This document shows, in pieces, positions 5,973-55,502 of a DNA stretch of 64,000 bases; the stretch's first letter is position 1, and every line of letters begins with the position of its first letter. The notes under the pieces are model-generated. The model saw only the letters and a program-made list of their open reading frames with translations. It did no database searches and was not told where the DNA came from. This DNA comes from Bacilli bacterium. Lineage in GTDB: Bacteria; Bacillota_I; Bacilli_A; ML615J-28; CAG-313. The stretch is from the NCBI GenBank assembly GCA_900752975.1, contig CAADXH010000098.1, positions 58 to 64,057 of the forward strand. The letters are read 5' to 3'. A program made the position numbers and the translations under genes.

Positions 5973-6608
5973 TTAGTTTAGTTGTTTTTTCAATATTATT
6001 TCTTTACTCTTCATTAGACGAATAATGTTACTTCTTTCATTATCTTCTAGTTTCATTGTAATGAAATGAATATTTTCTTCTAAGTTAGGAATTAACACAT
6101 ATTCAATAGCATTAACACGTCTTCTTGTTTTTTCAATTTCAACCGCAAGCATATCACAGCTTTTTTCAATTTCAGCAAGTTTTACCATTTTATCTACTAA
6201 AGTTGAAAGTCTTAAGACAGATTCATCAAGTTCACATGGTGTAAAGGCAAAACTGTATGTTATGTCAGTACTATCAGATGATTCTACTTTTAGACTTGGA
6301 ACTTTAATGTTCATTATTGTTTTGTCAGAAATATCAAGTTTTAAGTTTTGTGAAGGAACAAGAAAGGCTTCCATCAATCCAGCATAGCTCATTTTAAGGC
6401 GAGCTGAGCCAAAGGTACCAGCTATAAGAGCAAGCTCTGATTCAACAGTTTCTCTTAATTCACGGTTTTGTTTAATTAGATTCATAAACTGTCTAACCAT
6501 TTCATCTTGTTTATCTTTTAGTAATTTATGGCCTCTTGTTGCGGTGGAAAGTTCTTTTTTTAGACGCATTAGTTCCATTCTTGTTGGATTTATTGTCGTC
6601 TGTGCCAT
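5973..6608 (-). CDS. ntpD: V-type ATP synthase subunit D
   Basis: N-terminus MAQTTINPTRMELMRLKKEL is typical of V/A-ATPase subunit D. Last gene of the ntp operon. Confidence 0.9.
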   Translation of the reverse strand: MAQTTINPTRMELMRLKKELSTATRGHKLLKDKQDEMVRQFMNLIKQNRELRETVESELALIAGTFGSARLKMSYAGLMEAFLVPSQNLKLDISDKTIMNIKVPSLKVESSDSTDITYSFAFTPCELDESVLRLSTLVDKMVKLAEIEKSCDMLAVEIEKTRRRVNAIEYVLIPNLEENIHFITMKLEDNERSNIIRLMKSKEIILKKQLN

Positions 6609-6611
6609 AGG

Positions 6612-7991
6612 CTATTCCTCATCTTTTGGTAAGTATTTATCAATGTATTCAAGACTAATACGTTTAAGTTCAGTCTTAGGTAAAATCTTTAATAGTTTCC
6701 AACCAAGATCAAGAGTTTCTTCAATTGAACGATTTGTCTCGTTTCCTTGAGAAACATATTCTTTTTCAAATTCATCAGCAAATTTTGCATATAGTTTATC
6801 AACATCTGATAATGCCGCATCACCCAAAATAACTGATAATTCTTTAGCTTCTTTACCTCTTGCATATGCTGAGAATAATTGGTTCATTGTTTGAGAGTGA
6901 TCTTCTCTAGTTTTACCCTTACCAATACCTTTATCTTTTAATCTACTAAGTGAAGGTAAAACATCAATTGGTGGAACTATACCTTTACGATATAAGTCTC
7001 TAGATAGAATAATTTGTCCTTCTGTAATGTAGCCAGTTAAGTCAGGAATTGGATGAGTTTTGTCATCTTCTGGCATTGTAAGGATTGGAATTTGGGTAAT
7101 TGAACCTTTTTTACCATGGATTCGACCAGCTCTTTCATAAAGTGAGGCAAGGTCTGTATACATGTAACCTGGATAACCACGTCTACCTGGAACTTCTTTA
7201 CGAGCAGCAGATACTTCACGTAAGGCTTCAGCATAATTGGTAATATCAGTAATAATTACTAGAACATGCATACCAAGTTCATAGGCTAAATACTCAGCAC
7301 AAGTTATGGCCATACGTGGTGTTGCGATTCTTTCAATAGCGGGGTCATTGGCAAGATTCATAAATAACACGGATCTTTCAATGGCACCTGACTTTTTAAA
7401 ATCTTCAATAAAGAAATTAGCTTCTTCAAATGTAATACCCACCGCCGCAAACACAACCGCAAAGTCATCATCGGTTCCTCTTACTCTTGCTTGTCTTGCG
7501 ATTTGAACAGCAAGTTTAGAGTGAGGTAATCCAGAACCTGAAAAGATTGGAAGTTTTTGACCACGAACAAGGGTATTTAATCCATCAATGGCACTAATAC
7601 CAGTTTGAATGAACTCAGATGGATAATCACGGGCTACGGGATTTAATGGTGTACCATTAATATCTAATGATGCGGTTGGGATTAATTCATCACCGCCATC
7701 AATAGGGTGACCCATTCCATCAAATACTCGACCTACGATATCTGGAGAAACTTTTAGTTCAATACCATGGCCTAAAAACATCGCTTTGGCTGTGCTAATT
7801 TTTAAACCTTGTGAACTACTATATAATTGAACTAATGCTTTATCTTCATTAATTTCAAGAACTTTACCAAAGCGGATTTCACCATTTGCTTGTCTTATTT
7901 GGACAAGTTCATCATATTTAACACCTTCAACATGATCAACTAACATTAAAGGTCCAACAACTTCCCTAATTGTCTTATATTCTTTAGGCAT
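6612..7991 (-). CDS. ntpB: V-type ATP synthase subunit B
   Basis: 459 aa with a non-catalytic nucleotide-binding fold. It sits immediately after subunit A. Confidence 0.93.
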
Positions 7992-9772
7992 TAAAATTGT
8001 TCTCCTTTCATTAATTCATCATATTCATTATCAATTTCATGGTATAAGGCTTGAATTTTTTCGTCAAATTCATTTTCAGGAATATATTTCATTCTACCAA
8101 TTGATACAAGAGCATTCATCTTAATTATTTTAAAGTATGAAACATTGTTCTTTAAGGCATTAACTCCTTCTTCATACCATTTAAGAATAGCTTTTAACAT
8201 TCCAAATTGTTTCTTTAAAGAAGTGTATGTATCAATTTCATGGAAAGCAATTTGATGTAAATAGTCTTCACGAATGCTGCGGGCCGCATCTAAAGTTAAA
8301 CGATCACTATATTCAAGTGAATCTACACCAACTAGTCGAACAATTTCTTCTAGTTTTGATTCTTCTTGTAAAAGGCCCATCGCTTTACTTACTTGTTTAC
8401 TCCAGTCTTGATCTAGATGTTCATTGAAATATTTGTTAATATCATATAATGAATAACTCTTTAACCAGTCAATAGCTGGGAAGTGACGGCGATATGCAAG
8501 TTGAGCACTTAAGCCCCAGAATACTTTAACAATACGTAAAGTTGCTTGAGATACTGGTTCTGAAGTATCGCCTCCTGGAGGAGATACCGCACCTATTGCG
8601 GTGATAGAACCTTCAGAATTATCACTACCTAAGCATTTAACAAGACCAGCTCTTTCATAGAACTCGGCAAGTCTACTTGAAAGATATGCTGGATATCCTT
8701 CTTCACCTGGCATTTCCTCTAAACGGCCTGACATTTCACGTAATGCTTCGGCCCATCTAGATGTTGAATCGGCCATTATCGCAACGTTATATCCCATATC
8801 ACGGTAATATTCCGCAATTGTAATACCCGTATAAATTGAAGCCTCACGGGCCGCAACTGGCATATTAGAAGTGTTTGCGATTAACACTGTTCTTTTCATT
8901 AGGCTTTCACCAGTTTTAGGGTCTTTTAATTCAGGGAACTCTTGTAATACATCAGTCATCTCATTACCACGTTCACCACAACCTACATAAACGATAATAT
9001 CAGCATTTGCCCATTTTGCAAGTTGATGTTGAACAACGGTTTTACCACTACCGAAAGGTCCAGGTATCGCCGCAATCCCACCAAGGGCGATTGGAAAGAA
9101 TGTGTCAATTACTCTTTGTCCAGTAATAAGGGGAGCCGTTGGCGCCATTTTTTGCTTATATGGACGGCCCTTTCGAACTGGCCATTTTTGAATCATATTT
9201 AATTCTTTAACCTCACCTGTTGGAGTTTGGATTTTCACAATTACATCAGTGATTTTTGCATCACCTTGATGAATCCAAGTAATACATCCACTAACACCAT
9301 TTGGTACCATTATTTTATGTAAAACAACACTTGTTTCTTGAACTGTTCCTAGTGTATCACCACTACTTACTTGATCACCAACTTTTAAGATTGGTTTAAA
9401 CTCCCATACTTTTTCACGATTTAGTTTAGGAACATCAACGCCAAGGGGAATACGATCACCATAAGCATCGCTAATTACTTTTAAGGGACGTTCAATTCCG
9501 TCGTAAATACCTTCAATTAAACCGGGACCAAGTTCAACAGATAGTGGTTCATTTGTAAAATAAACCGGTTCACCAGGACCAAGGCCAGCTGTTTCTTCAT
9601 ATACTTGAATAGAGGCAACATCTCCTCTTAATTCAATTATTTCCCCGATTAGTTTTTTATTACTAACCTTAACAACGTCAAACATTTGGACATCTTTCAT
9701 GCCTTTCGCAATAACTAGTGGGCCTGCTACCTTGGAGATGATACCAATTTGTTGGTTTTCTAATTCTATCAT
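7991..9772 (-). CDS. ntpA: V-type ATP synthase catalytic subunit A
   Basis: Walker [10 protein letters not shown]; 593 aa. Start overlaps the preceding gene by ATGA. Confidence 0.95.
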
Positions 9773-9785
9773 ATTTTACCCCTTT

Positions 9786-10112
9786 CTAAAATATATCAAT
9801 GCCAATAGCTTTTTCAACATTTTCTCTTACTTTTTTCATGCCAATTCCACTATTAACATTATCTAGGGGAAGTGGTAAGATAATAGGATAAGTCATTTGA
9901 CTATACTTTTCTCTAGTTTCTGTAATACTTTCGTATACTTGTTCCGTAACAAAAATAATTTTACAACCAGCTTTATAAAGCCTAAAAATTTCTTTATCAA
10001 TGTCTTCAACATTATTTGAAAAGTATGTTTTAAAACCTACTGCGTTATAAATAGTTATAGATTCATCATTTCCTATTGCGGCGAGGGTCACATTTTCACT
10101 CATCCTCTTCAC
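9786..10112 (-). CDS. ntpF: V-type ATP synthase subunit F
   Basis: 108 aa at the expected position between C and A, with a MSENVTLAAIGN...-type N-terminus. Confidence 0.8.
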   Translation of the reverse strand: MKRMSENVTLAAIGNDESITIYNAVGFKTYFSNNVEDIDKEIFRLYKAGCKIIFVTEQVYESITETREKYSQMTYPIILPLPLDNVNSGIGMKKVRENVEKAIGIDIF

Positions 10113-10119
10113 CTACTTT

Positions 10120-11040
10120 CTAGATTAAATTTTTTAATTCAATGTTTGTATTAGAATATATTAGTCTAACATTTTGTGCTTCTGAAAGTTTTAACAAATA
10201 ATAGTAAATCATTGGACCAATTGTAAATGGATCATCTTTATATTTAGCCATTTCACTAATAATGAAACGGTCAAATAAGATTTCAATATTTGCGATACTT
10301 TCAACTTCTTTTAATGTTTTTGCTAAATGTCCTTCATAATATGGTTCAAGTGTTTTTATTCTATTTTCACTATCTAAGCCATACATGTTTTTTAGTTTAT
10401 CTTTTGTAACAATACCACCATCAATAATCATACTTTCATATTCAGGATAATCCCAATTTAAGTTTTTTGATCTCATCATGGAAATAATGTTTGTTACATC
10501 AATTTTAATGGTAAGGTATTTTCTTAAAATATGATTTTTAGTTTTCTTTAATGCATAATTATAAATAGTATTATCGATTATTGCACTTAATATTTTAGGG
10601 TTATTTGTTTCTTCTACCTTTTCATCTAAAATATTAATTAAATCTTTTTCACTTTTAGTAAGATTATTATATTGATGATTGATTACCGCATCAATTAAAT
10701 CTTCTTTTTTTATTGTGCCATTATCATCAATTAAATCTAATCGGTTTAAATCATATTTTTTTATTTTGTATATTAGTTTTAAATTTTGAGCATCATTCAC
10801 TAAATAGAAAAGATTTGTATCTTCTTTACTTGGAGTGATACTATCAATTAGAGTTCTTACTCTGTGTTTTTCGGAGGCAATTACTTCTTCTAAAGTCGTG
10901 CCTTCACTTCCATAATTCATGGCAAGTAATACTTTCACAAATTCTGTCTTGTCATATTTGGCAAGTACAAGTAATTTATTTCGATCAAGAACTTTGGTTT
11001 CTAAAGCTTTTATCGTTCCGTTAGCATAAGGATAATTCAT
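10120..11040 (-). CDS. ntpC: V-type ATP synthase subunit C (start moved to MNYPYANG...)
   Basis: About 306 aa at the position between E and F. RBS AAAGGAGaataatATG supports the internal Met, which also avoids a 30-nt overlap with ntpE. Confidence 0.8.
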   Translation of the reverse strand: MNYPYANGTIKALETKVLDRNKLLVLAKYDKTEFVKVLLAMNYGSEGTTLEEVIASEKHRVRTLIDSITPSKEDTNLFYLVNDAQNLKLIYKIKKYDLNRLDLIDDNGTIKKEDLIDAVINHQYNNLTKSEKDLINILDEKVEETNNPKILSAIIDNTIYNYALKKTKNHILRKYLTIKIDVTNIISMMRSKNLNWDYPEYESMIIDGGIVTKDKLKNMYGLDSENRIKTLEPYYEGHLAKTLKEVESIANIEILFDRFIISEMAKYKDDPFTIGPMIYYYLLKLSEAQNVRLIYSNTNIELKNLI

Positions 11041-11041
11041 A

Positions 11042-11659
11042 TTATTCTCCTTTACTAAACAACTTTCCCGCAATCTCAGGTTCTAGTTTTGTTTTTAATT
11101 CATCTAATAAAACTTCATATGAATTGTCAATGTCATAGTATTTACTAGCAATAATAAAGCCACCTTTAATATTTGCTTTAGTAGTACTAAGAATTAGATT
11201 ATATTTGTTATCTAATAATTTATCTAACTTATTATCATGATTACTTGAAAATAATTGTTGATATTTTACATAATCATTTTCATTTACCATTATTTCTTCA
11301 TGACCTTCAAGTTTTACTTTCTTTAAACTAGTTGTTACAAACTTAACTAAGTCCTCATCATTCATTTTGCAAAGTCGGTTTAAAGCTTCCTTAAATGTAT
11401 CGTTGATAATTGATTTTTGACTTGCTAAAACACTTTGTTTTTTAGCTTGTTCAAGTTCTGCTTTTTTAGTTTTTATCGCATCATCACACTTTAACTTTGC
11501 ATCACTAATTACTTGTTTGATTTTTTCATTTGTTTCATTCATAACTTGTTCAGTTATATTACTTGCTTTAATGTTGCCTTCTTCTTTGATTCTTGATGCT
11601 TCATCTAAAGCATTGGCAATTATTTTATCATATACTGAACTATTACCCACGTTATTCAC
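11042..11659 (-). CDS. ntpE: V-type ATP synthase subunit E
   Basis: 205 aa, charged coiled-coil stator-type sequence, in operon position. Confidence 0.8.
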   Translation of the reverse strand: MNNVGNSSVYDKIIANALDEASRIKEEGNIKASNITEQVMNETNEKIKQVISDAKLKCDDAIKTKKAELEQAKKQSVLASQKSIINDTFKEALNRLCKMNDEDLVKFVTTSLKKVKLEGHEEIMVNENDYVKYQQLFSSNHDNKLDKLLDNKYNLILSTTKANIKGGFIIASKYYDIDNSYEVLLDELKTKLEPEIAGKLFSKGE

Positions 11660-12139
11660 CTATTTTAATGCGAAAATTAGCATTATACTTACAATTAGGG
11701 AAAGGATAGCGTAAGTTTCAACAAGTACTGCCATAGTAATACCTTTGCCTGATGCTTCAGGTTGTTTTGCAGTCATCATAATACCAGATGTTGCAACTTT
11801 ACCTTGGAATATTGCTGAAATTAAGCCATTAATAGCGATTGGCATAAATACTGCGAAATATGCCCAACCTTGAGTTGTTGTTAAGGCAAATGCTGTAGCG
11901 GCGTCTCCACCTAATAATCCAACTTGAATCATAAATAAGAAAGTTGTTAAGAATCCGTATAACCCTTGAGTACCAGGTAAAATTTGAAGTACTAATAATT
12001 TACCGAATAATTCAGGTTTTTCTGATGTAACACCAGCTGCGGCTTTACCACACATTTGTACACCTAATATTGAACCAATACCAGGTAAAATTGTTCCGAG
12101 TGCTGCTCCTATAAGAGCAATAATTGTTCCATTTGTCAT
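11660..12139 (-). CDS. ntpK: V-type ATP synthase proteolipid subunit K (c-ring)
   Basis: 159 aa, four hydrophobic helices, glycine-rich GxGxG segments typical of c/K subunits. Confidence 0.9.
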   Translation of the reverse strand: MTNGTIIALIGAALGTILPGIGSILGVQMCGKAAAGVTSEKPELFGKLLVLQILPGTQGLYGFLTTFLFMIQVGLLGGDAATAFALTTTQGWAYFAVFMPIAINGLISAIFQGKVATSGIMMTAKQPEASGKGITMAVLVETYAILSLIVSIMLIFALK

Positions 12140-12151
12140 TTTTTTCTTCTC

Positions 12152-14029
12152 CTATTCTTCTTTTATTTCTTTTATATATTTAGTTTCAATTGATAACGGT
12201 TTAAAGTCAACCCCGCCACCTTCATAGAATTTGCCATAAAACTCAATGTATTGAAGCCTACTATCATGTACATAGGCTGATAATAATCCTAAAACTAAGT
12301 TAAATACATGGCCTACTAAGAAGATAATCGCTGCGAAAATCATGCCAACAACACTACCACCAACCATCTGGGCTAGTGTGTTCATTACTACCGCAACCGC
12401 AGCACTTGACATCGCAAGAGCCATTATTCTTGAATATGATAGTAAATCTCCCATATAAGATGTCACATCATATAGACCTAGAATTCCACCAAGGGCTTTT
12501 CCAAGAATTGATTTTTTAGTATGTCCAGCAAAGAGGATGATTAGTAAAACTCCTATTCCTACCATTACGATGCCAACCATACTATTTAGGAAATACGCAC
12601 CTATTCCTAAAAGGATTAAAATCCAACTTACGTTTTTCGCAAGCATATCAATGATATTTCCGTCTTTAATGTTTTCAATCATTTTCACCACAAGTCCGGT
12701 AATTAAATGTAGTGCGCCAATCGCAACTGATACTAGTAGCATTTTGATTGGGTCTTCCATTGGATTAAACCAATACCAAACATTTAATCCAAAATCAGTT
12801 TGAGGATTAAAACCAAAGTAACTACCAAACATAATTCCCCAAAAAATCGTAGGAACCCCTGAATACATGATAATATTCATTAGTTTTAAAGTATTTCCTT
12901 TTGGTTTCATTAGTTTTTTAAGAATTAAGCAAAATACTATCATCATGATACCATATCCTGCATCACCCATCATCATTCCAAATAAGAACCAGTACCATAC
13001 TGACATAACGGGGTTAGGGTCTAACTCTTTACTATTAGGCTTAGAAAACATATCCGTGATTGTTTCAAATTGACTAACAAACTTTTTATTCTTAGTATAT
13101 GTTGGTACAACTTCATCATCAGTTGGATCAGTAAACTCAATATCGTAGTATTCTGTTTGTTCTTGAACTGCTTTTTCTACTTCTTCTAAAGTATCTATTC
13201 TAACCCAACCTTCAATCACGATTGTTTCAATTGTTTTTTCATATTTAACATTGTCTATTGCATCTTGAGTTAAAATCTGATCACTCAAAACTTTAAATTC
13301 TTCAATATTACCTGAAAGAGTTTTTAGTTTTTCTGCGATGTCTTCACACTCTTTTTCTTTACTTTCAATTTGCTTTTTTAATGTTTCAATATAAGTTTTA
13401 ATAGTAACATCAAGAACTGGTAATTTATAATCATTAAATTCATAACGACTTAATGCATCTTTTAGTTGTTTTTCATCATCAATATAACAAACTACAATTA
13501 CACCACTTATATTTTTATATGATGGAAGAATAATACTTTCAAAACTAGCAATTTCATCATCTTGTTTAAATTTCTCAACATACCTAGTTGGCATAGTTCC
13601 AATATGAAAAATTGCATTTTTAGTGTTTTTAATTTGATTTGGAATCATATCAAGTTCATTCCAAATCATTAATGATTCAATTTCATCAATAATTTCTTTA
13701 ATTTGTTGTTTTAATTCACTAAGATTATTTTGATAATTCTCAATTTCACTAACTTCATCAATAGTCTTTTGTGATACATTCGTAAAATCTTTATAATCAA
13801 TCGTTTGATAATCTCCAAATAAGCCTTTTTTCTTTTGGTATTTTCCCGCAAACTTAATGGTTTCTTCAACTTTATCATGTAACGCTCCATTTAGATGTGC
13901 CGATGTTGTTGATTCTCCATCTTCTTTATTGATTATCATGATTACACCATATTTTTGAAGTGACTTAATGACTTTCTCATAATCATCTTTTAAAATAACA
14001 ATCTTAGCTTTTTTCATTTTTACAATCAT
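12152..14029 (-). CDS. ntpI: V-type ATP synthase subunit I (membrane a-subunit)
   Basis: 625 aa with a soluble N-terminal half and a polytopic C-terminal half, in operon position. Confidence 0.9.
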   Translation of the reverse strand: MIVKMKKAKIVILKDDYEKVIKSLQKYGVIMIINKEDGESTTSAHLNGALHDKVEETIKFAGKYQKKKGLFGDYQTIDYKDFTNVSQKTIDEVSEIENYQNNLSELKQQIKEIIDEIESLMIWNELDMIPNQIKNTKNAIFHIGTMPTRYVEKFKQDDEIASFESIILPSYKNISGVIVVCYIDDEKQLKDALSRYEFNDYKLPVLDVTIKTYIETLKKQIESKEKECEDIAEKLKTLSGNIEEFKVLSDQILTQDAIDNVKYEKTIETIVIEGWVRIDTLEEVEKAVQEQTEYYDIEFTDPTDDEVVPTYTKNKKFVSQFETITDMFSKPNSKELDPNPVMSVWYWFLFGMMMGDAGYGIMMIVFCLILKKLMKPKGNTLKLMNIIMYSGVPTIFWGIMFGSYFGFNPQTDFGLNVWYWFNPMEDPIKMLLVSVAIGALHLITGLVVKMIENIKDGNIIDMLAKNVSWILILLGIGAYFLNSMVGIVMVGIGVLLIILFAGHTKKSILGKALGGILGLYDVTSYMGDLLSYSRIMALAMSSAAVAVVMNTLAQMVGGSVVGMIFAAIIFLVGHVFNLVLGLLSAYVHDSRLQYIEFYGKFYEGGGVDFKPLSIETKYIKEIKEE

Positions 14030-26497: not shown

Positions 26498-26647
26498 AAT
26501 TTACCTCATTTATTTTTTGCATTTTATTACTTGATTATTTTACCACACTATTGTCATTTATGCAATTCTTTTACTAAATTAATACTTTTATACGTTAATT
26601 TGGCAGTAAGAAAATGCCTACCAAGAGGTAGGCATTAGATTGATTCT

Positions 26648-28417
26648 CTATTTTTCTGGGAATCTTTCTCTTGATACATATGTTGTATGCAATAATTCAT
26701 GAGCTTTATGAGAATTAGGTTCACCTAAGAATTCTTTATAAAGTTGTTGAACTTGCTTATTATTGTGTGATTGACGAACATTTTGTCTTTCATCTTCACT
26801 ATATAATGCGGCTGCACGTTTTTCACAATATGTATCTAAAATATTATTTTCTTCATTTGGCAAGAAGCATGGTTTAACATATGGTTGACCACCACCATTG
26901 ATACATCCACCAGGGCAACCCATGATTTCAATAAATGTATAAGGACTCTTGCCAGCACGTATATCATCCATTAATACTTTAGCATTTCTCATACCTGATG
27001 CTACAGCAACTTTTAGTTCTGCACCATTAATTTCAATTGTAGCTTCTTTTAAGCCTTTCATACCACGAACAGCTGTAAATTCAATTGGCTTATGTTCTTT
27101 ATTTGTTAAAACATAATATGCTGTACGTAATGCGGCTTCCATAACACCACCGGTAGTACCGAAGATAACACCAGCACCAGTGTATTCACCCATAATATCT
27201 TGGTCGTATTCTTCATCTGGAAGTTTGCTGAAGTTAATACCACTACGTTTAATTAACTTAGCTAATTCTCTAGTTGTTAAAACAGCATCAACGTCTTTAA
27301 TTCCATCTTTTTGAAGTTGAGGACGTTCCTTTTCATATTTTTTAGCTGTACAAGGCATAATTGAAACAACATAAATATCATGTGGATCAAGTCCCATTTT
27401 TTCCGCAAAGTAACTCTTAATAATAGCACCTTGCATTTCATGAGGTGATTTACAGCTTGATAAATGATCAAGTTGATCTCCATAATAATATTCTGCATAG
27501 TTAACCCAACCAGGTGAACATGAAGTAATCATAGGTAATACACCTTTAGAGTTAATTCTTGATAATAATTCTGTTGCTTCTTCCATAATTGTTAAGTCAG
27601 CACCAAAATCTGTATCATATACTTTATTGAATCCTAATCTACGTAATGCGGCTACCATTTTACCAGTAACTGGAGTACCAATTGGATAACCAAATTCTTC
27701 ACCTAATGTTGCGCGAATTGCAGGAGCAGTTTGAACAACTAAATATTTACCAGCTCTTCTTGCATCATCAACTTTATCAATTTCTGATTTTTCCATTAAT
27801 GCGCCAGTAGGACAAACGTTAACACATTGTCCACATAAAATACATGGGCTTTCAGCAAAACTTCTATTTGCAGCTGGAGAAACGATAGTAGCGAAACCAC
27901 GTTTTTCGAATCCTAAAATACCAGTACCATGTGCAGCAACGCAACGGCTTACACAACGACCGCATAGAATACATTTAGAAGTATCACGGATGATTGATGG
28001 AGATAATTCATCAATTGTAACAGGAGTTTTACTGCCAATAAATTTATTTTCTCTTGCACCTACAAGTGATGCTACATGTAATAATTCACATTTACCATTT
28101 TTATCACATTGTTGACAATTAAATGAATGGTTAGAAAGAATTAATTCAACACTTGCACGTCTTGCAGCAACAGCTTTAGGGGTTGAAATTTTAATTTCCA
28201 TACCTTCAGAAATAGGATAAACACAAGATGCAACTAATCCTCTTGCTCCTGTTGCTTCTACTAAACAAACACGACAAGAAGCTAAACTACATTCACCATG
28301 ATTATAAGCACAAAGTGATGGGATTTCGTATCCACATTCTTTAGCTGCTTCTAATATTGTTAAGCCTTCTTCTACTTGATAAGCTTGACCTTCAATTTTA
28401 ATATTAATTTTTGCCAT
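26648..28417 (-). CDS. hydA: [FeFe] hydrogenase catalytic subunit, trimeric/bifurcating type. L1 motif is TSCSP rather than TSCCP.
   Basis: N-terminal 2Fe-2S plus 4Fe-4S domains. H-cluster L2 MPCTAKKYE; L3 EIMGCPGGCINGGGQP; L1 ITSCSPGWV. Partner genes hydB and hydC lie adjacent. Confidence 0.88.
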   Translation of the reverse strand: MAKINIKIEGQAYQVEEGLTILEAAKECGYEIPSLCAYNHGECSLASCRVCLVEATGARGLVASCVYPISEGMEIKISTPKAVAARRASVELILSNHSFNCQQCDKNGKCELLHVASLVGARENKFIGSKTPVTIDELSPSIIRDTSKCILCGRCVSRCVAAHGTGILGFEKRGFATIVSPAANRSFAESPCILCGQCVNVCPTGALMEKSEIDKVDDARRAGKYLVVQTAPAIRATLGEEFGYPIGTPVTGKMVAALRRLGFNKVYDTDFGADLTIMEEATELLSRINSKGVLPMITSCSPGWVNYAEYYYGDQLDHLSSCKSPHEMQGAIIKSYFAEKMGLDPHDIYVVSIMPCTAKKYEKERPQLQKDGIKDVDAVLTTRELAKLIKRSGINFSKLPDEEYDQDIMGEYTGAGVIFGTTGGVMEAALRTAYYVLTNKEHKPIEFTAVRGMKGLKEATIEINGAELKVAVASGMRNAKVLMDDIRAGKSPYTFIEIMGCPGGCINGGGQPYVKPCFLPNEENNILDTYCEKRAAALYSEDERQNVRQSHNNKQVQQLYKEFLGEPNSHKAHELLHTTYVSRERFPEK

Positions 28418-28429
28418 ACATCTACACTC

Positions 28430-30295
28430 CTATTTCTTAATTATTGCTTTAAATGGACATGATGCTAAGCATAATCCACATTTAATACATTTAGCTTGAT
28501 CAATAACATATGGTTCTTTACCAGGAACACCAGAGATTGCATTAACTGGACAATTTCTAGCACATTTAGAACATTTCTTACATGATTCTGGAATGATATG
28601 ATATTGAGTTAATTTCTTACAAATGTGAGCAGGACACTTCTTATCAACAATATGAGCAAGATACTCATCTCTAAATTGTCTCATTGTAGATACGATTGGG
28701 TTAGCAGCTGTTTGACCTAAACCACATAATGAGTTAGAAGCAACTGTAGTAGCAAGTTCTTCTAATTCGTGTAAATCATTCATTGTGCCTTTGCCTTCAG
28801 TAATCTTTGTTAAGATTTCAAGCATACGTTTTGTACCAATACGACATGGAGAACATTTACCACATGATTCATCACAAATAAATTCCATATAGAATTTAGC
28901 AACGTCAACCATACAGTTATCTTCATCCATAACGATTGCACCACCAGAACCCATCATAGAGCCTAATGCTACTAAGTTATCATAGTCAATAGGAGTATCA
29001 AGATCTTTGGCAGTTAAACATCCACCAGAAGGTCCACCTGTTTGAATAGCCTTAAATGCTTTATTGTGAGGAATACCACCACCGATATCGTAAATTAATT
29101 CACGAAGTGTAGTACCCATAGGAATTTCAACTAGACCAACATTATTAACTTTTCCACCTAAAGCAAACACTTTAGTACCTTTAGATTTTTCAGTACCATA
29201 TTGTGCAAACTTATCTGCACCTTCTCTTAAGATAAATGGTACACATGCTAATGTTTCAACGTTATTGATAATTGTTGGTTTGCCCCATAAACCTTTTACA
29301 GCTGGGAATGGAGGTCTTGGACGTGGCATACCACGTTTACCTTCAATTGAGTTTAGTAATGCAGTTTCTTCACCACAAACGAATGCACCTGCACCTAAAC
29401 GAATATGAACACGGAAGTTAAATCCACTTCCTAAAATATTATCACCTAATAAGCCAATTTCTTCAGCTTCTTCAATTGCTTTACGAAGTCTTTCAACAGC
29501 AATTGGATATTCGGCACGTACATAGAAATAACCATTTGATGCACCAATAGCATAACCAGCAATTACCATACCTTCGATAACCGCAAGTGGGTTACCTTCT
29601 AAGATTGAACGGTCCATGAAAGCACCTGGGTCACCTTCATCACCATTACATACAACATATTTTTCATCATGTTGTTGATTATATGCAAATTGCCATTTTC
29701 TACCTGTAGGGAAGCCACCGCCACCACGACCACGTAGACCTGATCTTAAGATTTCATCGATAACTTCTTGTCTAGACATATGAAGAGCTTTTTGTAAGCC
29801 TTGATATGCTCCGTATCCTAATGCTTCTTCTATACATTCAGGGTTAATAACGCCACATCCATGTAAAGCTAAACGAACTTGCTTTTTGTAGAAATTGATT
29901 TCGTCTTGTTTTTGAATTCTTGCTTGAGTTACTGGATCAACATAAAGTAATCTTTCAACTACTTGATGGTTGATAATATCAGAAGTCATAATTTCTTCAA
30001 CATCTTCTACTTTTACACCACGATATAATGTATCTTCTGGGAAGATTTTAACGAATGGGCCTTGAGAACAGAATCCAAAACATCCAACTTTGTTTGCAGT
30101 TACTTTATCACTTAAACCACGAGCTACAATTTCTTCTTGGAATTTTGCAAGAATTTCAGCAGAGTTACTTGATAAACATCCTGTACCACCACAAATAACG
30201 ATTGCACGTTTGCCGTTAGTACCAGCAAATTTTTCATCTAAACTAGTTGTGCACTTTTTAATTGTCGCATTTAATTCTTTTTCATTTTGAATCAT
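28430..30295 (-). CDS. hydB: NADH-binding FMN/Fe-S subunit (NuoF-like) of the bifurcating hydrogenase
   Basis: FMN site GGGGFPTGRKW; C-terminal 4Fe-4S cysteine clusters; 621 aa. Confidence 0.9.
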   Translation of the reverse strand: MIQNEKELNATIKKCTTSLDEKFAGTNGKRAIVICGGTGCLSSNSAEILAKFQEEIVARGLSDKVTANKVGCFGFCSQGPFVKIFPEDTLYRGVKVEDVEEIMTSDIINHQVVERLLYVDPVTQARIQKQDEINFYKKQVRLALHGCGVINPECIEEALGYGAYQGLQKALHMSRQEVIDEILRSGLRGRGGGGFPTGRKWQFAYNQQHDEKYVVCNGDEGDPGAFMDRSILEGNPLAVIEGMVIAGYAIGASNGYFYVRAEYPIAVERLRKAIEEAEEIGLLGDNILGSGFNFRVHIRLGAGAFVCGEETALLNSIEGKRGMPRPRPPFPAVKGLWGKPTIINNVETLACVPFILREGADKFAQYGTEKSKGTKVFALGGKVNNVGLVEIPMGTTLRELIYDIGGGIPHNKAFKAIQTGGPSGGCLTAKDLDTPIDYDNLVALGSMMGSGGAIVMDEDNCMVDVAKFYMEFICDESCGKCSPCRIGTKRMLEILTKITEGKGTMNDLHELEELATTVASNSLCGLGQTAANPIVSTMRQFRDEYLAHIVDKKCPAHICKKLTQYHIIPESCKKCSKCARNCPVNAISGVPGKEPYVIDQAKCIKCGLCLASCPFKAIIKK

Positions 30296-30795
30296 TAGTT
30301 TGCACCTCCTAATTTACGGTATTCTTCAATAATGCCAGCAACTTGGTTAACAGCTACTTTTGGATATACTTTGCCATTGATTGAAAGGGCAGGAGCGATA
30401 CCACATGCACCAATACAACGAAGAGCATCAAGTGTGAATAAACCATCAGCTGATGTTTCACCTGGCTTAATGTTTAGAAGTTCAGCGAACTTGTCAATAA
30501 CTTGTTGAGAACCTTTAACATAACATGCAGTTCCTAAACATACACCAATAACATATTTTCCTTTTGGATTTAAAGAAAAGAATGAATAGAATGTTACAAC
30601 ACCATAAATTTCAGCAACAGGAATTCCAGTTTTTTCTGAAATTAATTCTTGAACTTCAAGTGGAATGTAACCATACTCACGTTGTATATCACTTAAGATC
30701 ATCATAAGTGGAGTATTTTCATTTTCGTATCTTGCGATAATACTTTCGATTTGCTTTACAGCATTTGCGCTTAAATGAGCCATATTAACCTCCAT
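30295..30795 (-). CDS. hydC: NuoE-like thioredoxin-fold [2Fe-2S] subunit of the hydrogenase
   Basis: 166 aa NuoE/HndA-like with a Cys pattern in the C-terminal half. Translationally coupled to hydB. Confidence 0.85.
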   Translation of the reverse strand: MEVNMAHLSANAVKQIESIIARYENENTPLMMILSDIQREYGYIPLEVQELISEKTGIPVAEIYGVVTFYSFFSLNPKGKYVIGVCLGTACYVKGSQQVIDKFAELLNIKPGETSADGLFTLDALRCIGACGIAPALSINGKVYPKVAVNQVAGIIEEYRKLGGAN

Positions 30796-30830: not shown

Positions 30831-30859
30831 ATTATATCAAAAAAATGCATTTTTTGCAA
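30831..30859 (-). promoter_or_regulatory. Promoter of the hydCBA operon (TTGCAA-17-TATAAT)
   Basis: -35 TTGCAA at 30854-30859, 17-bp spacer, -10 TATAAT at 30831-30836 on the minus strand. RBS GGAGG lies before the hydC ATG. Confidence 0.5.
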
Positions 30860-31827: not shown

Positions 31828-33282
31828 TTATAGTGCAACAAAAGCAAATCTTAAAATACCAAGTAGTGCAATGATTGTTACAACGATATCTTTTTTACCA
31901 TATTTACCAGTTAATAAAGTTATTAATACATAGGTGATAGCACCAATCATAATACCATTACAAATAGAATATGTTGCGATTGTCATTATGAGTGTCATAA
32001 ATCCAGTTGCAGCTGAAGTGATATCAGTGAAATCTACTTTTACGATATTTTTACACATTAAAATACCAACATAAATTAGGGCAGGAGCCGTTGCACATTG
32101 TGGAACGTACTTAACTACTGGAGCCGCAAATAAGCAAGCAATGAATAAAACAGCTGTAACTAGTGATGCAAGACCTGTTCTTCCTCCGGCCGCAACACCT
32201 GCACTTGATTCAACAAATGTGGTAATTGTTGATGTACCAGTACCAGCACCAGCGGCTGTACCAATAGCATCACATAACATTATTTCACCTAAACCAGTTG
32301 GATCACCATTTTCATCTAGCATATTAGCTTCTGAAGATGTGCCATAAACAGTACCTAATGTTTCAAACATATCAACAAGAGAGTAAGTAAGTACTAGCAT
32401 AATCAAACTAAGTACACTACTAACTACCTTCCAATCAAATACATATTTAAAGCCTTTAAAGCATCCACCAAAACCAACTTCAAACCAATCTTTAAATGAA
32501 CGACCTACAGATATATTTTCCATTTGTACTTTATCTACATTAAAGATTAAACATAAAATATAATATAGAATAGTTGAACATATAATTCCCAAAATAATTG
32601 CCAATTGTTTTACTACCTTAGACTTACATTTTGTAAGAACTATTATTATAATTACACCAATAAAAGCTACTAGGGCAGGAATTATAATATTAGGATCATG
32701 ACTAGCAAAGTTTACTAATGAAACTGCAGTATATTTATTAGGTACTACAATTCCGCTATTTTGTAAGCCAACAAAAGCGATAAATAAACCAATACCAGCA
32801 GACATAGCTGTTTTAAGACAACTTGGTAGAGCTTTCGCAATATATTTTCTAAGACCAGTAAGTGATAAAATTAAGAAAAAAACTCCTGATAATAGAATTA
32901 CAACTAAACCAATTTGATAACCTTCAACTACTGATATTTTTTCTCCAACTGGTACACCATTTTCATTAAAGATTAAACATGGTGCAATAAAAGAAACAAA
33001 GAAAAATGAGTTAAGTCCCATACCAGCTGCAAGAGCAAATGGTTTGTTTGCGATAAACGCCATACATACAGTCGCAATAACTGCCGCTATGATACCACCA
33101 ATAAAACAAGCATTCCAAACTTTTGTCATTTCTGGAATTGCTGTTCCTCCAGTCATTTCATTAGGGTTTACAATTACAATATAACACATTGCAAAAAAAG
33201 TTGTGATACCGGCAATTATTTCGGTTTTAATTGTCGTTTGGTTTTCATCAATTTTAAAAACCTTGTTCAAAAAATTTTTCAT
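31828..33282 (-). CDS. NCS2 family purine permease (AzgA/PbuG-like guanine-hypoxanthine permease), paralog 1
   Basis: 484 aa polytopic protein. N-terminus MKNFLNKVFKIDENQTTIKTEIIAGITTFFAMCYI is typical of the COG2252 family. About 80% identical to the 35046-36500 paralog. Confidence 0.8.
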   Translation of the reverse strand: MKNFLNKVFKIDENQTTIKTEIIAGITTFFAMCYIVIVNPNEMTGGTAIPEMTKVWNACFIGGIIAAVIATVCMAFIANKPFALAAGMGLNSFFFVSFIAPCLIFNENGVPVGEKISVVEGYQIGLVVILLSGVFFLILSLTGLRKYIAKALPSCLKTAMSAGIGLFIAFVGLQNSGIVVPNKYTAVSLVNFASHDPNIIIPALVAFIGVIIIIVLTKCKSKVVKQLAIILGIICSTILYYILCLIFNVDKVQMENISVGRSFKDWFEVGFGGCFKGFKYVFDWKVVSSVLSLIMLVLTYSLVDMFETLGTVYGTSSEANMLDENGDPTGLGEIMLCDAIGTAAGAGTGTSTITTFVESSAGVAAGGRTGLASLVTAVLFIACLFAAPVVKYVPQCATAPALIYVGILMCKNIVKVDFTDITSAATGFMTLIMTIATYSICNGIMIGAITYVLITLLTGKYGKKDIVVTIIALLGILRFAFVAL

Positions 33283-33348
33283 ATTCTCCTCCTATTGTGA
33301 AGCCAACAAAATATGAATATACAAAAAGAAAGATATTATCTTACTAAT

Positions 33349-33418
33349 CTTAATCGTAGTCGTTTGCTTTTTGTTAAGAAATGGACGTTGCAAATCATAT
33401 TCTCGAATTTATACGATC
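33349..33418 (-). ncRNA. Degenerate purine-riboswitch-like element (decayed copy of the riboswitch at 36602-36675)
   Basis: Retains P1 (AUCGUA/UACGAU), UAUAAAUUCGAGAAUAUGAUU and ACUACGAUUAAG identical to the intact copy. The P2/P3 core (UUUCUACC, CCUUAAAU) is lost. Confidence 0.3.
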
Positions 33419-33489
33419 AATTAACTTCACTTAATTTTATCATATAAATTTTTTATTGCAATGAATTTACTTTTTTTAAATTGAAATTA

Positions 33490-33521
33490 AAAGAACTCTA
33501 TTAGTATCAATAAAGTTCTTT
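33490..33521 (-). terminator. Hairpin downstream of the 33547-34914 gene
   Basis: Stem aaagaact / agttcttt (8 bp) with a 16-nt loop. Weak U-tract. Confidence 0.35.
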
Positions 33522-33546
33522 GTAATGTAAACTATAAATAGCACAA

Positions 33547-34914
33547 TCAATTATCACTTTTTTTGCTTTCTTTATTTTTTGGTAATATTAAATTTAAGAC
33601 TATTCCCACAATAGTTGACAAGGCTACACTTGTAAATAATTTCATTCCCGTCTTACTATAAATAGCTGCTCCACCAATACCAATTATAAGAATAGTTGAA
33701 ATGATGATTAAATTTCTAATGTTGTTCAAGTCAACTTTAGCATCTAGTAAAGTTTTAAGACCATTAGCAGCGATAAAACCATATAATATTAAGCATACTC
33801 CTCCCATCACAGCAGGTGGAATAGTTGAAATTAATATAGTAAAAACATTACAAAAAGAAAGTAATATTGCAAAAATTGCAGCAAGACCTGTCACCCATAC
33901 TGATCCAACTTTAGTAAGACCAACAACAGAAGTATTTTCACCATATGATGTGTTTGCAGGACCACCTATCACTCCAGCGAATGCTGTAGCAATACCATCA
34001 CCAAGTAATGTTCGATGTAATCCAGGATCTGATAAATAATCTTTTTTAGTAATTTGTCCAAGTACTTCATGATCACCTATGTGTTCACAAATGGTAGCAA
34101 ACGCAAGAGGAATTACCGTGATAATTGCTCCAAAACTAACTTTATACATGGAAATGCCTAATCCTAATTCTTGGTCTTTCCATCCCATAATTATAAATTT
34201 AGGAACGGCAAACCATTGACTTGGGTTTTTAATTACTGTAGCTAAACTAGTAAAATCAATTAATTTAGCATCACCGTTCGGAATAAAGTTAAAAATGATC
34301 GCAATCACATATCCACCAATAATACCTACTAAGAAGGGAACAACTTTCAAGAATTTTTTTGATAAGATGGCAGTAAATGCAATAATTAATAGTGTTGCAA
34401 GTGCCACTACTATAGCTCTCCAATCGCCATTTTGCACCATACCTGTGTTAGAAATTGCACTGTTTGATAGACCAAGTCCTATTACCATAATCATCGGACC
34501 AATTACAACAGGAGGTAAAATCTTTTTGAGCCAATTTGTGCCAAATATCTTTATAAAGCCAGCCACAATCACATAAATTAATCCAACCACAACAAGTCCC
34601 GTAAGAGCAGGCCCATATGAAGTTATTACATTATTTCCTTTAATATTTGTAGTTACACTTACCGCAAGTATATATTCAATATAAGCAAAACTAGATCCTA
34701 AATAAATGGGAACTTTAGCTTTAGTACATAAAATATAAATTAACGTACCAAATCCAGATGCGAATAACGCAACTGAAATTGGAAGTCCTGTTAAAATAGG
34801 TACTAAAACAGTAGCACTAAACATCGCAAATACATGTTGAAAACTTAATAAAATCCATTTATGAACAGGGGGACGATAGTTTGGTTTTAATGTTTGAAGT
34901 TCGTTTGTTTCCAT
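33547..34914 (-). CDS. NCS2 family nucleobase:cation symporter (uracil/xanthine permease-like)
   Basis: 455 aa. N-terminal region HKWILLSFQHVFAMFSATVLVPILTG matches the UraA/PbuX family signature. Confidence 0.75.
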   Translation of the reverse strand: METNELQTLKPNYRPPVHKWILLSFQHVFAMFSATVLVPILTGLPISVALFASGFGTLIYILCTKAKVPIYLGSSFAYIEYILAVSVTTNIKGNNVITSYGPALTGLVVVGLIYVIVAGFIKIFGTNWLKKILPPVVIGPMIMVIGLGLSNSAISNTGMVQNGDWRAIVVALATLLIIAFTAILSKKFLKVVPFLVGIIGGYVIAIIFNFIPNGDAKLIDFTSLATVIKNPSQWFAVPKFIIMGWKDQELGLGISMYKVSFGAIITVIPLAFATICEHIGDHEVLGQITKKDYLSDPGLHRTLLGDGIATAFAGVIGGPANTSYGENTSVVGLTKVGSVWVTGLAAIFAILLSFCNVFTILISTIPPAVMGGVCLILYGFIAANGLKTLLDAKVDLNNIRNLIIISTILIIGIGGAAIYSKTGMKLFTSVALSTIVGIVLNLILPKNKESKKSDN

Positions 34915-34929
34915 TATTTTCTCCTTTTC

Positions 34930-34960
34930 TTAAAAAAATAAGAGTTTTAAAACTCTTATT
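34930..34960 (-). terminator. Terminator (perfect palindrome aataagagttt/aaactcttatt plus U-run)
   Basis: 11-bp stem followed by TTTTTTT on the minus strand. Confidence 0.55.
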
Positions 34961-34968
34961 CTAAAATA

Positions 34969-35037
34969 TTAAAAAACAAATGTTAAACATTTCAGTATTA
35001 CTATTTAAATTGATATTAACTATATTTAACATTTGTC
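34969..35037 (-). terminator. Terminator after the 35046-36500 permease gene
   Basis: 12-bp stem acaaatgttaaa / tttaacatttgt with a large loop, followed by a U6 run. Confidence 0.5.
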
Positions 35038-35045
35038 TTTCCTCC

Positions 35046-36500
35046 TTACATTGCCACAAAAGCAAATCTCAAAATTCCAAGTATCGCAATAATAGTTACA
35101 ACTATATCTTTTTTGCCATACTTACCAGTTAATAAGGTTATAATTACATAAGTAATTGCACCTATCATAATGCCATTACTAATTGAGTATGTTGCAATCA
35201 TCATTATAAAGGTAATAAATGCAGTCGCAGCAGAAGCAATATCACTAAAATCTACCTTCACAATATTTTTACACATCAAGATACCAACATAAATTAAAGC
35301 AGGAGCAGTTGCACATTGTGGAACATATTTAACTATTGGTGAGGCAAATAAACAAATTATAAATAAAATAGCAGTTACAAAAGCTGTTAAACCGGTTCTT
35401 CCTCCCGCCACAACGCCAGCACTTGATTCTACAAATGTTGTAATTGTTGAAGTACCAGTACTAGCACCAACAACAGTACCGATTGCATCACATAGCATTT
35501 CTTTTCCTAAATCAATTGGATCACCATTTTCATCTAGCATACCAGCTTCTGCTGATGCCCCATAAACAGTGCCAAGAGTATCAAACATGTCGACAAGTGC
35601 ATATGTAATAGCTAACATAACTACACTTATCACACCACCTAATAGTTTTCCTTCAAACACAGTTTTAAACCCTTTAAAGCAACCGCCAAACCCAACTTCA
35701 AACCAATCCTTAAATGTTTTGCCAATTGAAATATTGGAAACCTTTGGAATTTCAACTTTAAAAATTAAACAACAAATATAATATAAAACAGTTGAACATA
35801 AAATTCCAAAAATAATTGATGTTTTGTTTAGTAATTTCACTTTTGATTTTGAAAATACAACAATTAAAATTAATCCGATAAAAGCTACAATAGCAGGGAT
35901 TGCTGTTGCTGCACCTTTTGTAAAATTAGTTAATGCAACACCTGTATATTGATTAGGTACAACAATACCACTATTCTGTAAGCCAATAAAAGCTATAAAC
36001 AAACCAATACCTGCAGGAATAGCTGTTTTAAGAGAGCTTGGTAATGCTTTTGCAATATATTTTCTAAGACCTGTAAGTGATAAAATCAGGAAAATGGCAC
36101 CTGATATTAAAATAATTACAAGACCTGCTTGATAGCCATCTACAAGCGGAGTTTCAGTTCCTATTATTTTGCCAGTTTCCGTATCAAATAATAAACAAGG
36201 AATAATGAATGAAACATAGAAGAATGAATTTAATCCCATCCCGGCAGCAAGAGCAAAAGGCTTGTTCGCAATAAATGCCATACAAAGGGTTGCGATAACC
36301 GCTGCGATAATTCCACCAATAAAACAAGCATTCCAGATTTGTGATGCACCATCAATGTCTAAGAAACCTGTCATTTGATTAGGATTTACAATTACAATAT
36401 AGCACATTGCAAAAAAAGTAGTTAAACCAGCAATTATTTCAGTTTTAATTGTGGTTTGGTTTTCGTCAAGTTTAAAAACTCGATTTAAAAATTTTTTCAT
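35046..36500 (-). CDS. NCS2 family purine permease (AzgA/PbuG-like), paralog 2
   Basis: 484 aa, same family as 31828-33282. Preceded by an intact guanine riboswitch. Confidence 0.8.
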   Translation of the reverse strand: MKKFLNRVFKLDENQTTIKTEIIAGLTTFFAMCYIVIVNPNQMTGFLDIDGASQIWNACFIGGIIAAVIATLCMAFIANKPFALAAGMGLNSFFYVSFIIPCLLFDTETGKIIGTETPLVDGYQAGLVIILISGAIFLILSLTGLRKYIAKALPSSLKTAIPAGIGLFIAFIGLQNSGIVVPNQYTGVALTNFTKGAATAIPAIVAFIGLILIVVFSKSKVKLLNKTSIIFGILCSTVLYYICCLIFKVEIPKVSNISIGKTFKDWFEVGFGGCFKGFKTVFEGKLLGGVISVVMLAITYALVDMFDTLGTVYGASAEAGMLDENGDPIDLGKEMLCDAIGTVVGASTGTSTITTFVESSAGVVAGGRTGLTAFVTAILFIICLFASPIVKYVPQCATAPALIYVGILMCKNIVKVDFSDIASAATAFITFIMMIATYSISNGIMIGAITYVIITLLTGKYGKKDIVVTIIAILGILRFAFVAM

Positions 36501-47183: not shown

Positions 47184-48620
47184 TTATTCTTTATTAATAT
47201 TTAAGATTGATACGGCATCTGTAATTGTCTTTTCAAATGCCTCCATGCCATATTTATCGACTTCTGTTTTATTTTTTTCGCCATGAGTTAAGCAACCGGC
47301 ACCACCGATACAGCCACCAATACAAGCCATACCTTCAATAAAGTTTGCATCTAAGACATTCTTATTCTTTCTAAGTAATGCCATTTTACATTCTTCAATA
47401 CCATCACATGGAATTGCTTTTAAAACAAAGTCATTTATGTTAGCTTCTTTTAGTCCTTCTGCCATAGCATCTGATAACCCACCAGAACGTGCGAAGATTC
47501 TTCCATAATATGATGCATTATCTAATATATCTTCTTCAAGGGTTGTAATATCAAGGTCCTTACTGTCAAATAAAGCTTGTAATTCTTCAAATGTTAAAAC
47601 TTCATCAACATAAGGTTTTACTTCTTCTTGTTGGATTTCCATCTTTTTAGCTGTACAAGGACCGATAAAAACAATTTTACTATTTGGATCGTTTTGTTTA
47701 ATATATTTAGAAATAGTTGCCATAGGTGATAAATTATGTGATAAATATTGTTTTAGGTTAGGAAATTCTTTTTTCAAGTAAGCCACAAAGGCTGGACAAC
47801 AACTACTTGTTAAAAATCCTTTTTCAGCAAGTTCTTTAGCCTCAGACATCGCTACCATATCAGCACCAAGAGCTGCTTCAATAACGGTATAAAAGCCTAA
47901 GTTTTTAAGACCCGTTATAACTTGACCTAATTTTGCATAATTAAACTGACTTGAAATGGAAGGAGCTACTACCGCATATACTTTATATTTTGTATTGTTT
48001 TGACTCTTCTTAATAATATCAATAACATCAATTATAAATGATTTATCAGTGATTGCTCCAAAAGGACATTGATATACACAAGCACCACATGCAATACACT
48101 TATCATTATTAACTTTTGCTTCTTTATTTTCACCCATAGTTATAGCTTTTACTTTACATGCTACTTCACAAGGGCGTTTATAATTATGGATGGCACTATA
48201 TGGACAAACTTTCGCACACGCACCGCACTCTACACATTTTGTTTTATCAATTCTTGCGACATGGTTATTATCAAATGAAATAGCACCACGCTTACATGCG
48301 GCTTCGCATCTATGAGCTAAACAACCACGACAAGCATTTGTTACATCATATCCACCCATTGGGCATTCATCACAAGCAATGTCTATTACCTCAATTACGT
48401 TTGGATTATTGCGATCCCCACCCATTGCTATTTTCACTCTTTCAGCAATAATAGCACGTTCTTTATATACGCAGCAACGCATTGTTGGAACATTACCAGA
48501 AATTATTTCTTTCGGAATATCTAAGATATGATCATATAGAGTTTCATTCCAAGCATATCTTGCGACTTCACGCAATACTTCATATTTTATATATTGGACT
48601 TTTGTGTCAAACTTTCTCAT
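47184..48620 (-). CDS. [FeFe] hydrogenase-like protein with N-terminal 4Fe-4S ferredoxin domains
   Basis: Several CxxCxxCxxxCP clusters. H-cluster motifs TSSCCPAFV (L1), GPCTAKKME (L2, Gly in place of Met) and EGMACIGGCIGGAGC (L3). Confidence 0.8.
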   Translation of the reverse strand: MRKFDTKVQYIKYEVLREVARYAWNETLYDHILDIPKEIISGNVPTMRCCVYKERAIIAERVKIAMGGDRNNPNVIEVIDIACDECPMGGYDVTNACRGCLAHRCEAACKRGAISFDNNHVARIDKTKCVECGACAKVCPYSAIHNYKRPCEVACKVKAITMGENKEAKVNNDKCIACGACVYQCPFGAITDKSFIIDVIDIIKKSQNNTKYKVYAVVAPSISSQFNYAKLGQVITGLKNLGFYTVIEAALGADMVAMSEAKELAEKGFLTSSCCPAFVAYLKKEFPNLKQYLSHNLSPMATISKYIKQNDPNSKIVFIGPCTAKKMEIQQEEVKPYVDEVLTFEELQALFDSKDLDITTLEEDILDNASYYGRIFARSGGLSDAMAEGLKEANINDFVLKAIPCDGIEECKMALLRKNKNVLDANFIEGMACIGGCIGGAGCLTHGEKNKTEVDKYGMEAFEKTITDAVSILNINKE

Positions 48621-48631
48621 ATATTCACCAA

Positions 48632-55485: not shown

Positions 55486-55502
55486 AACCTTTGTTCTCCT
55501 TT

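Follow-up and report, generated by a model that had tools for sequence, protein, structure and literature searches.

The hydC-hydB-hydA operon of the window (the whole stretch of 64,000 nucleotides that was analysed) very probably encodes, as judged from its sequence, a HydABC-type flavin-based electron-bifurcating/confurcating [FeFe] hydrogenase of a low-GC gut bacterium, and this enzyme would belong to a subclass that carries a serine at one of the ligand positions of the H-cluster: the L1 motif of the catalytic subunit reads TSCSP, with Ser301 in the place of the second cysteine of the canonical TSCCP. The variant is already known, at the sequence level and then, in 2023, structurally; it is widespread, natural and functional. 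The finding is ordinary in so far as the same variant is found in many other hydrogenases and is present in the solved, active enzyme of Acetobacterium woodii.

The three genes are located on a single strand in the order hydC-hydB-hydA (Table 1), hydC and hydB overlapping by 1 nt and hydB and hydA being separated by 12 nt. The Pfam domains of HydA are Fer2_4, NADH-G_4Fe-4S_3, two Fer4, Fe_hyd_lg_C and Fe_hyd_SSU; its H-domain is that of the group A enzymes (PF02906, Fe_hyd_lg_C, E 2.9e-99; PF02256, E 7e-25), and the protein scores 532 bits against TIGR02512 (cutoff 406). [quoted passage not shown] The assignment of the gene to the catalytic subunit of a HydABC-type complex in the preliminary description is borne out by the immediate neighborhood of hydB and hydC and by the score of HydA against NCBIfam NF040763 ('NADH-dependent [FeFe] hydrogenase, group A6'), which at 839.1 bits lies above the cutoff of 765. 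The A6 of the NCBI naming is the group of HydABC enzymes that HydDB lists as A3.

For each of the three subunits, the top match among PDB entries was the corresponding chain of the A. woodii HydABC complex: HydA1 for HydA (7Q4V/7Q4W/8A5E, E 2.6e-190), 7q4v_B for HydB (E 3.9e-248, residues 30-620 covered) and 7q4v_C for HydC (E 7.9e-49). The AlphaFold model of HydA (mean pLDDT 85, pTM 0.86) had its best structural match in 7q4w_A (TM 0.83); the structure modelling that had been proposed as a check thus supports the HydABC-type fold, and, being calculated without cofactors, the model informs on the fold and not on the ligation by Ser301.

Matches to a Rex operator were at chance level over the window, and none was located in the promoter region upstream of hydC. 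Genes for the maturases HydE, HydF and HydG were not found within the 64-kb window; as the latter contains three [FeFe]-hydrogenase paralogues, maturase genes are likely to be present elsewhere in the genome. The GC content of the window is 30.5%, and the closest genome among the matches listed was that of 'uncultured Mollicutes bacterium UMGS75' (99% identity), with relatives in the Acholeplasmatales. Upstream of the operon, a purine riboswitch (RF00167, 83.4 bits) precedes a gene for a xanthine/uracil-family permease; this gene opens a tandem row of three permease paralogues, all of them positioned between the riboswitch and hydCBA. The further surroundings appear fermentative, with a V/A-type ATPase operon, a bifunctional AdhE, a Rex-like redox regulator and a PEP carboxykinase.

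Table 1. Positions of the hydrogenase genes, motifs and neighboring features in the window.
Feature	Position	Strand	Remarks
hydA	26648..28417	-	ORF, 589 aa; catalytic [FeFe]-hydrogenase subunit, M3 architecture
hydB	28430..30295	-	621 aa; NuoF-like FMN/NAD(H)-binding subunit
hydC	30295..30795	-	166 aa; NuoE-like thioredoxin-like [2Fe-2S] subunit
Promoter-like site TTGCAA-17-TATAAT, extended -10 TG	30831..30859	-	~35 nt upstream of the hydC start; consensus scan match only
Terminator-like hairpin	26613..26636	-	10-bp stem followed by T-rich tail, 12 nt past the hydA stop; consensus scan, hairpin visible in the sequence
L1 motif TSCSPGW	27506..27526	-	residues 298-304; direct translation
Cys300 codon TGT	27518..27520	-	CpI Cys299, proton relay to the adt amine
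Ser301 codon TCA	27515..27517	-	CpI Cys300 / Cys299Tk / Ser301Aw, [4Fe-4S]H ligand position
L2 motif MPCTAKKYE	27332..27358	-	Met354, Cys356, Lys359; direct translation; canonical MPCxxKxxE
L3 motif EIMGCPGGCINGGGQP	26882..26929	-	Met499, Cys501, Cys505; direct translation; canonical ExMxCxxGCxxGGGQP
Purine riboswitch RF00167	36591..36692	-	upstream of the xanthine/uracil-family permease
Xanthine/uracil-family permease	35046..36500		first of the three tandem paralogues
Three tandem permease paralogues	31828..36500		
V/A-type ATPase operon, AdhE, Rex-like regulator, PEP carboxykinase	5973..14029, 52777..56129, 60783..62390	-	fermentative surroundings
Second three-gene hydrogenase module	47184..51488	-	
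HydS-like protein	49797..51488	-	563 aa; Fe_hyd_lg_C, PF04060 FeS domain and long C-terminal extension
SpoIIE/PP2C phosphatase	48632..49804	-	start overlapped by 8 nt by the end of the HydS-like gene
Monomeric group B hydrogenase	47184..48620	-	478 aa; downstream; TIGR04105 563 bits, cutoff 450; L1 TSSCCPAF

Translation of the exact coordinates gave the motifs as they had initially been described, i.e. a TSCSP in L1 that is encoded with TGT TCA, next to canonical L2 and L3 motifs; by a strict L1 rule of two cysteines (TSCCPxW), HydA fails at the second of them. In HMMER and BLASTP alignments that were ungapped around L1, Ser301 was placed opposite Cys300 of CpI, Cys299 of T. kivui and Ser301 of A. 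woodii, and Cys300 opposite Cys299 of CpI. The latter residue is the proton relay beside the adt bridge (PMC11376134), and the second L1 cysteine counts among the four residues that ligate the [4Fe-4S]H cluster (PMC5855289, PMC10021017); the substituted position is indeed, as had been claimed, that of the cubane ligand Cys300 of CpI. A register shift that would restore two cysteines was ruled out: the alignments were free of gaps over approximately 60 residues both before and after L1, no register yielded a second cysteine, and the substitution stands.

The other catalytic residues of HydA are conserved (E280, E283, R287, C300, S320, P325, M354, C356, K359, F419, M499, C501 and C505). They include the complete proton pathway (CpI C299, E279, S319, E282 and R286, corresponding to HydA C300, E280, S320, E283 and R287) and the residues of the [2Fe] pocket (CpI K358, M353, M497, P231 and F417, corresponding to K359, M354, M499, P232 and F419). 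Besides Ser301, the sole difference in the active site was His326, which substitutes Gln325 of CpI in the [2Fe] pocket; among 122 aligned sequences, this position is occupied by His in 16 and by Met in 18. With regard to the cysteine that bridges to the di-iron site, we take C366 of the C. reinhardtii enzyme CrHydA1 to be Cys503 of CpI according to the published numbering. Katsyv et al. (PMC10021017) named Cys354Tk/Cys356Aw as the bridging residue, which is the L2 cysteine (CpI Cys355) in the present alignment, whereas for Kertess et al. (PMC5855289) it is the second L3 cysteine, CrHydA1 C366, that forms the bridge; this conflict between the two texts has no bearing on the window.

Of the structurally known enzymes, A. 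woodii HydA1 is the closest counterpart: its L1 region (MITSCSPGWI) contains the Cys300-Ser301 pair at identical residue numbers, and the protein is 52% identical to the HydA of the window without a gap near L1, with the domain architecture, all catalytic residues and the fold (TM 0.83) in common. The two differ in their hosts (an acetogen versus a gut Mollicutes/Acholeplasmatales-like MAG), in the subunit composition of the complex, which is HydABC(D) in A. woodii whereas no hydD-like gene was evident beside the operon of the window, and in residue 326, which is His in the window HydA and Gln in A. woodii HydA1 as well as in CpI. Thermoanaerobacter kivui HydA1 (8A6T) and Thermotoga maritima HydA (7P5H) agree with the window HydA in complex type and architecture, with high similarity in sequence and fold; however, both possess the canonical TSCCP and have thus kept the ligand cysteine (Cys299Tk) that is Ser301 here. 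CpI of Clostridium pasteurianum (group A1) shares the M3 fold (TM 0.84, approximately 43% identity), the L2 and L3 motifs and the proton pathway, but is a monomeric, ferredoxin-dependent enzyme with TSCCPGW and Cys300 as ligand; in addition, it has Ser232 at a position where the HydABC enzymes have Ala.

The A. woodii enzyme provides the experimental precedent. According to Katsyv et al. (JACS 2023, PMC10021017), Ser301Aw replaces the cysteine ligand, no effect of this serine on the infrared signature of the H-cluster was apparent, the FTIR states being typical, and the HydABC complex is active in both directions. Of the consequences that had been considered in the preliminary description, ligation by serine is the reading adopted for this solved homologue and by analogy would apply to the window HydA. 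An altered H-cluster, by contrast, finds no counterpart in the typical FTIR states of an enzyme with the same TSCSPGW (PMC10021017), and the suggestion that the protein is not a conventional hydrogenase disagrees with the bidirectional activity of the A. woodii homologue and with the conservation of the other catalytic residues in HydA. Nor is the variant new, as had been implied: with reference to Winkler et al. 2013, Kertess et al. (Chem Sci 2017, PMC5855289) state that about 20% of the putative hydrogenase sequences analysed have a serine at the L1 ligand position, and TSCSPGW had been noted by Di Rienzi et al. 2013 in trimeric hydrogenases of Melainabacteria. A literature search on 'TSCSP' returned the Melainabacteria paper as its single hydrogenase match; the papers of Katsyv et al. 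and Kertess et al. were reached via the PDB match.

By homology to A. woodii HydA1, Ser301 would occupy the ligand position of the cubane and probably bind the iron through its serinate oxygen, and Cys300 would continue to act as proton relay. The H-cluster would then assemble and turn over H2 normally, with the electrons being transferred via the F-clusters of HydA to the FMN of HydB, where H2 would be coupled to NAD(H) and ferredoxin. Both the O-ligation and the activity of the window HydA are probable on the grounds of the 52% identity and the identical active-site inventory. The complex as a whole is most likely an ordinary HydABC hydrogenase, coupled to NADH and ferredoxin, and its host a gut bacterium of the Mollicutes. 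The O-ligation of Ser301 in A. woodii itself is suggested by a cryo-EM model of moderate resolution, as opposed to a measured Fe-O distance.

Such coordination could also be envisaged differently, with Ser301 as a non-ligand: Cys300 would swing to the cubane, or a three-coordinate site would be completed by water or hydroxide, and the relay function would pass to Ser301 or to a water molecule. Precedent for a mobile cysteine comes from CrHydA1 C115A, for which Kertess et al. proposed Cys114 as a possible substitute ligand (PMC5855289), and the A. woodii cryo-EM maps, which are below atomic resolution (PMC10021017), leave room for arrangements of this kind. However, Cys300 is invariant across Ser-type and Cys-type sequences (120/122), as is expected if the relay role has been retained in both classes, and a Cys-to-Ser mutant of the relay residue is completely inactive (PMC11376134). 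The normal HoxH/Hhyd chemistry and the activity of A. woodii HydABC (PMC10021017) likewise argue against a displaced relay, and the depositors of this structure built Ser301 as a ligand; we consequently regard a non-ligand Ser301 as improbable.

Still less probable, and in our estimation very unlikely, is a degenerate or non-catalytic HydA, i.e. a sensory or pseudo-hydrogenase with a compromised H-cluster site. One canonical ligand is admittedly absent, and a paralogue of clearly sensory type, the HydS-like protein, is encoded in the same window. But the remaining residues of the H-cluster, of the cyanide anchoring and of the proton pathway are intact in HydA, the protein is devoid of sensory domains (Pfam), its motif is identical to that of the active, characterised A. 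woodii enzyme (PMC10021017), and the hydCBA operon to which it belongs is conserved over many taxa and under purifying selection; the selection on Ser301 (see below) speaks against such a role as well.

The conservation of Ser301 was evident at all levels of relatedness covered. A protein identical to HydA is encoded on eight public contigs, and all of the 120 homologues with at least 89% identity among the matches listed contain TSCSP; one homologue cluster at this identity level (at least 89%) occurs on at least 1000 contigs and carries the NCBI name 'NADH-dependent [FeFe] hydrogenase, group A6 [Acholeplasmatales bacterium]'. Genomes representing individual species were scanned as well, with the TSCSPGW peptide as part of the seed, so that the at least 600 stretches obtained gauge the breadth of the variant and not its frequency; the best 80 of these stretches all showed TSCSP. 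The same holds for 82 of 82 related loci (best-match loci, for which TSCSPGW was also partly the seed), in which hydB adjoins hydA in 73 cases, most of the others being situated on truncated contigs. The hosts of the Ser-type loci include Oscillospiraceae, Lachnospiraceae, Erysipelotrichaceae (among them Holdemania massiliensis), Acholeplasmatales, Anaeroplasmataceae, Faecalicatena contorta, a Coriobacteriales MAG and others. Over the 82 loci, Ser301 is encoded by TCA (27), TCT (24), TCG (12), TCC (9), AGC (8) and AGT (2); the use of all six codons, from both serine codon families, shows that selection acts on the serine itself.

That TCA is a misread or misassembled cysteine codon, a reading that had nothing in its favor but the rarity presumed at the outset, is excluded, as TGT TCA is present in independent assemblies from the human gut (scaffold L001) and the pig gut (contig L002), which differ by a synonymous exchange in the Pro295 codon (CCT versus CCA, reported as three codons upstream), and as the exact protein recurs on other contigs and the serine in all homologues and loci mentioned above. 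The earlier argument that two nucleotide changes separate the codon from one for cysteine is correct in that TCA differs from TGT/TGC at two positions and is no sequencing error; as an evolutionary statement it does not hold, because a single step leads from TGT to TCT, from which TCA is reached by a synonymous change.

The frequency of the variant was estimated in an unbiased sample of the 150 best cluster representatives at 50% identity. Here, L1 read TSCCP in 100 sequences, TSCSP in 18 and SSCSP in one, so that 19 of the 150 were Ser-type; wherever the H-domain of the latter was complete, L2 and L3 were canonical. According to a neighbor-joining tree of the H-domains and the nearest-neighbor identities, one main Ser clade comprises the window HydA, A. 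woodii HydA1 and several of the representatives. Further Ser-type sequences are scattered in the tree (e.g. P0133 and P0234 near CpI, and P0219), the deep branches of which are unsupported. Whether TSCSP is lineage-specific, as had been asked of an alignment, can be answered in the affirmative from these representative counts, the clade and the related loci. One representative outside the window (P0121) is a predicted protein of 4122 aa, in which seven tandem copies of the H-domain each carry L2 and L3 motifs. Misassembly could account for it, as could an artefact in a eukaryotic gene model, or the protein may truly have multiple H-domains.

No compensating conserved cysteine was found elsewhere in the H-domains of the Ser-type sequences, Cys322 being common in both classes; the lack of a cysteine specific to the Ser-type argues that the serine itself occupies the ligand site. 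An extra cysteine that immediately precedes the first one of L3 (E[VI]MCC[EP]GGC) was observed in 3 of 16 Ser-type sequences (P0126, P0142, P0219) versus 1 of 104 of the Cys-type, and in some lineages the fourth thiolate could be supplied in this alternative way; the window HydA has a Gly at this position. Two residues, one within L1 and one adjoining it, were enriched together with the serine, namely Gly303 (15/16 Ser-type versus 37/104 Cys-type) and Ile297 (8/16 versus 11/104), and this enrichment is confounded by shared ancestry and therefore taken as a lead only.

The tolerance of the serine appears to depend on its context. In CrHydA1 C115S, an engineered variant of the C. reinhardtii enzyme with the Cys-to-Ser exchange at the position of Ser301, the [4Fe-4S] cluster and the activity (less than 1 umol H2 per min per mg) are lost (PMC5855289), whereas natural Ser-type enzymes are functional. 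The ligation by serine may be enabled by co-evolved residues of the second sphere, with Gly303 (TSCSPGW) in contrast to Ala (TSCCPAW) and Ile297 in contrast to Phe; if this is true, the failure of C115S in the algal enzyme would be explained. That the serine ligand is an adaptive trait of the very large gut/rumen HydABC clade and not a neutral one, by tuning the potential of [4Fe-4S]H, the catalytic bias or the robustness of the H-cluster, is conceivable but rather doubtful; should it be correct, the window HydA would offer a natural and convenient starting point for the transplantation of the Ser ligation. Which advantage the O-ligation might confer and why the Cys-to-Ser exchange fails in the algal enzyme are questions of hydrogenase chemistry that have already been raised in the literature, to which the window adds one more Ser-type example and a modest hint of covariation.

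With regard to annotation, TSCSP in L1 is no sign of a broken or non-canonical hydrogenase; it rather marks a common functional HydABC subclass with abundant members among the Bacillota and Mollicutes of gut and rumen. A rule that demands TSCCPxW is too strict, considering that the same deviation is found in a solved, active group A enzyme and in 19 of the 150 nearest representatives.

A second hydrogenase module of three genes is present in the same window (Table 1). Its first gene encodes a HydS-like protein, the motifs of which are degenerate (ISSCCHS, GPCVAKKDE and EMSACHGSCIAGP), followed by a SpoIIE/PP2C phosphatase gene and a monomeric group B hydrogenase. From gene content and motifs, this module looks like a phosphatase-linked H2-sensing unit beside a group B enzyme.
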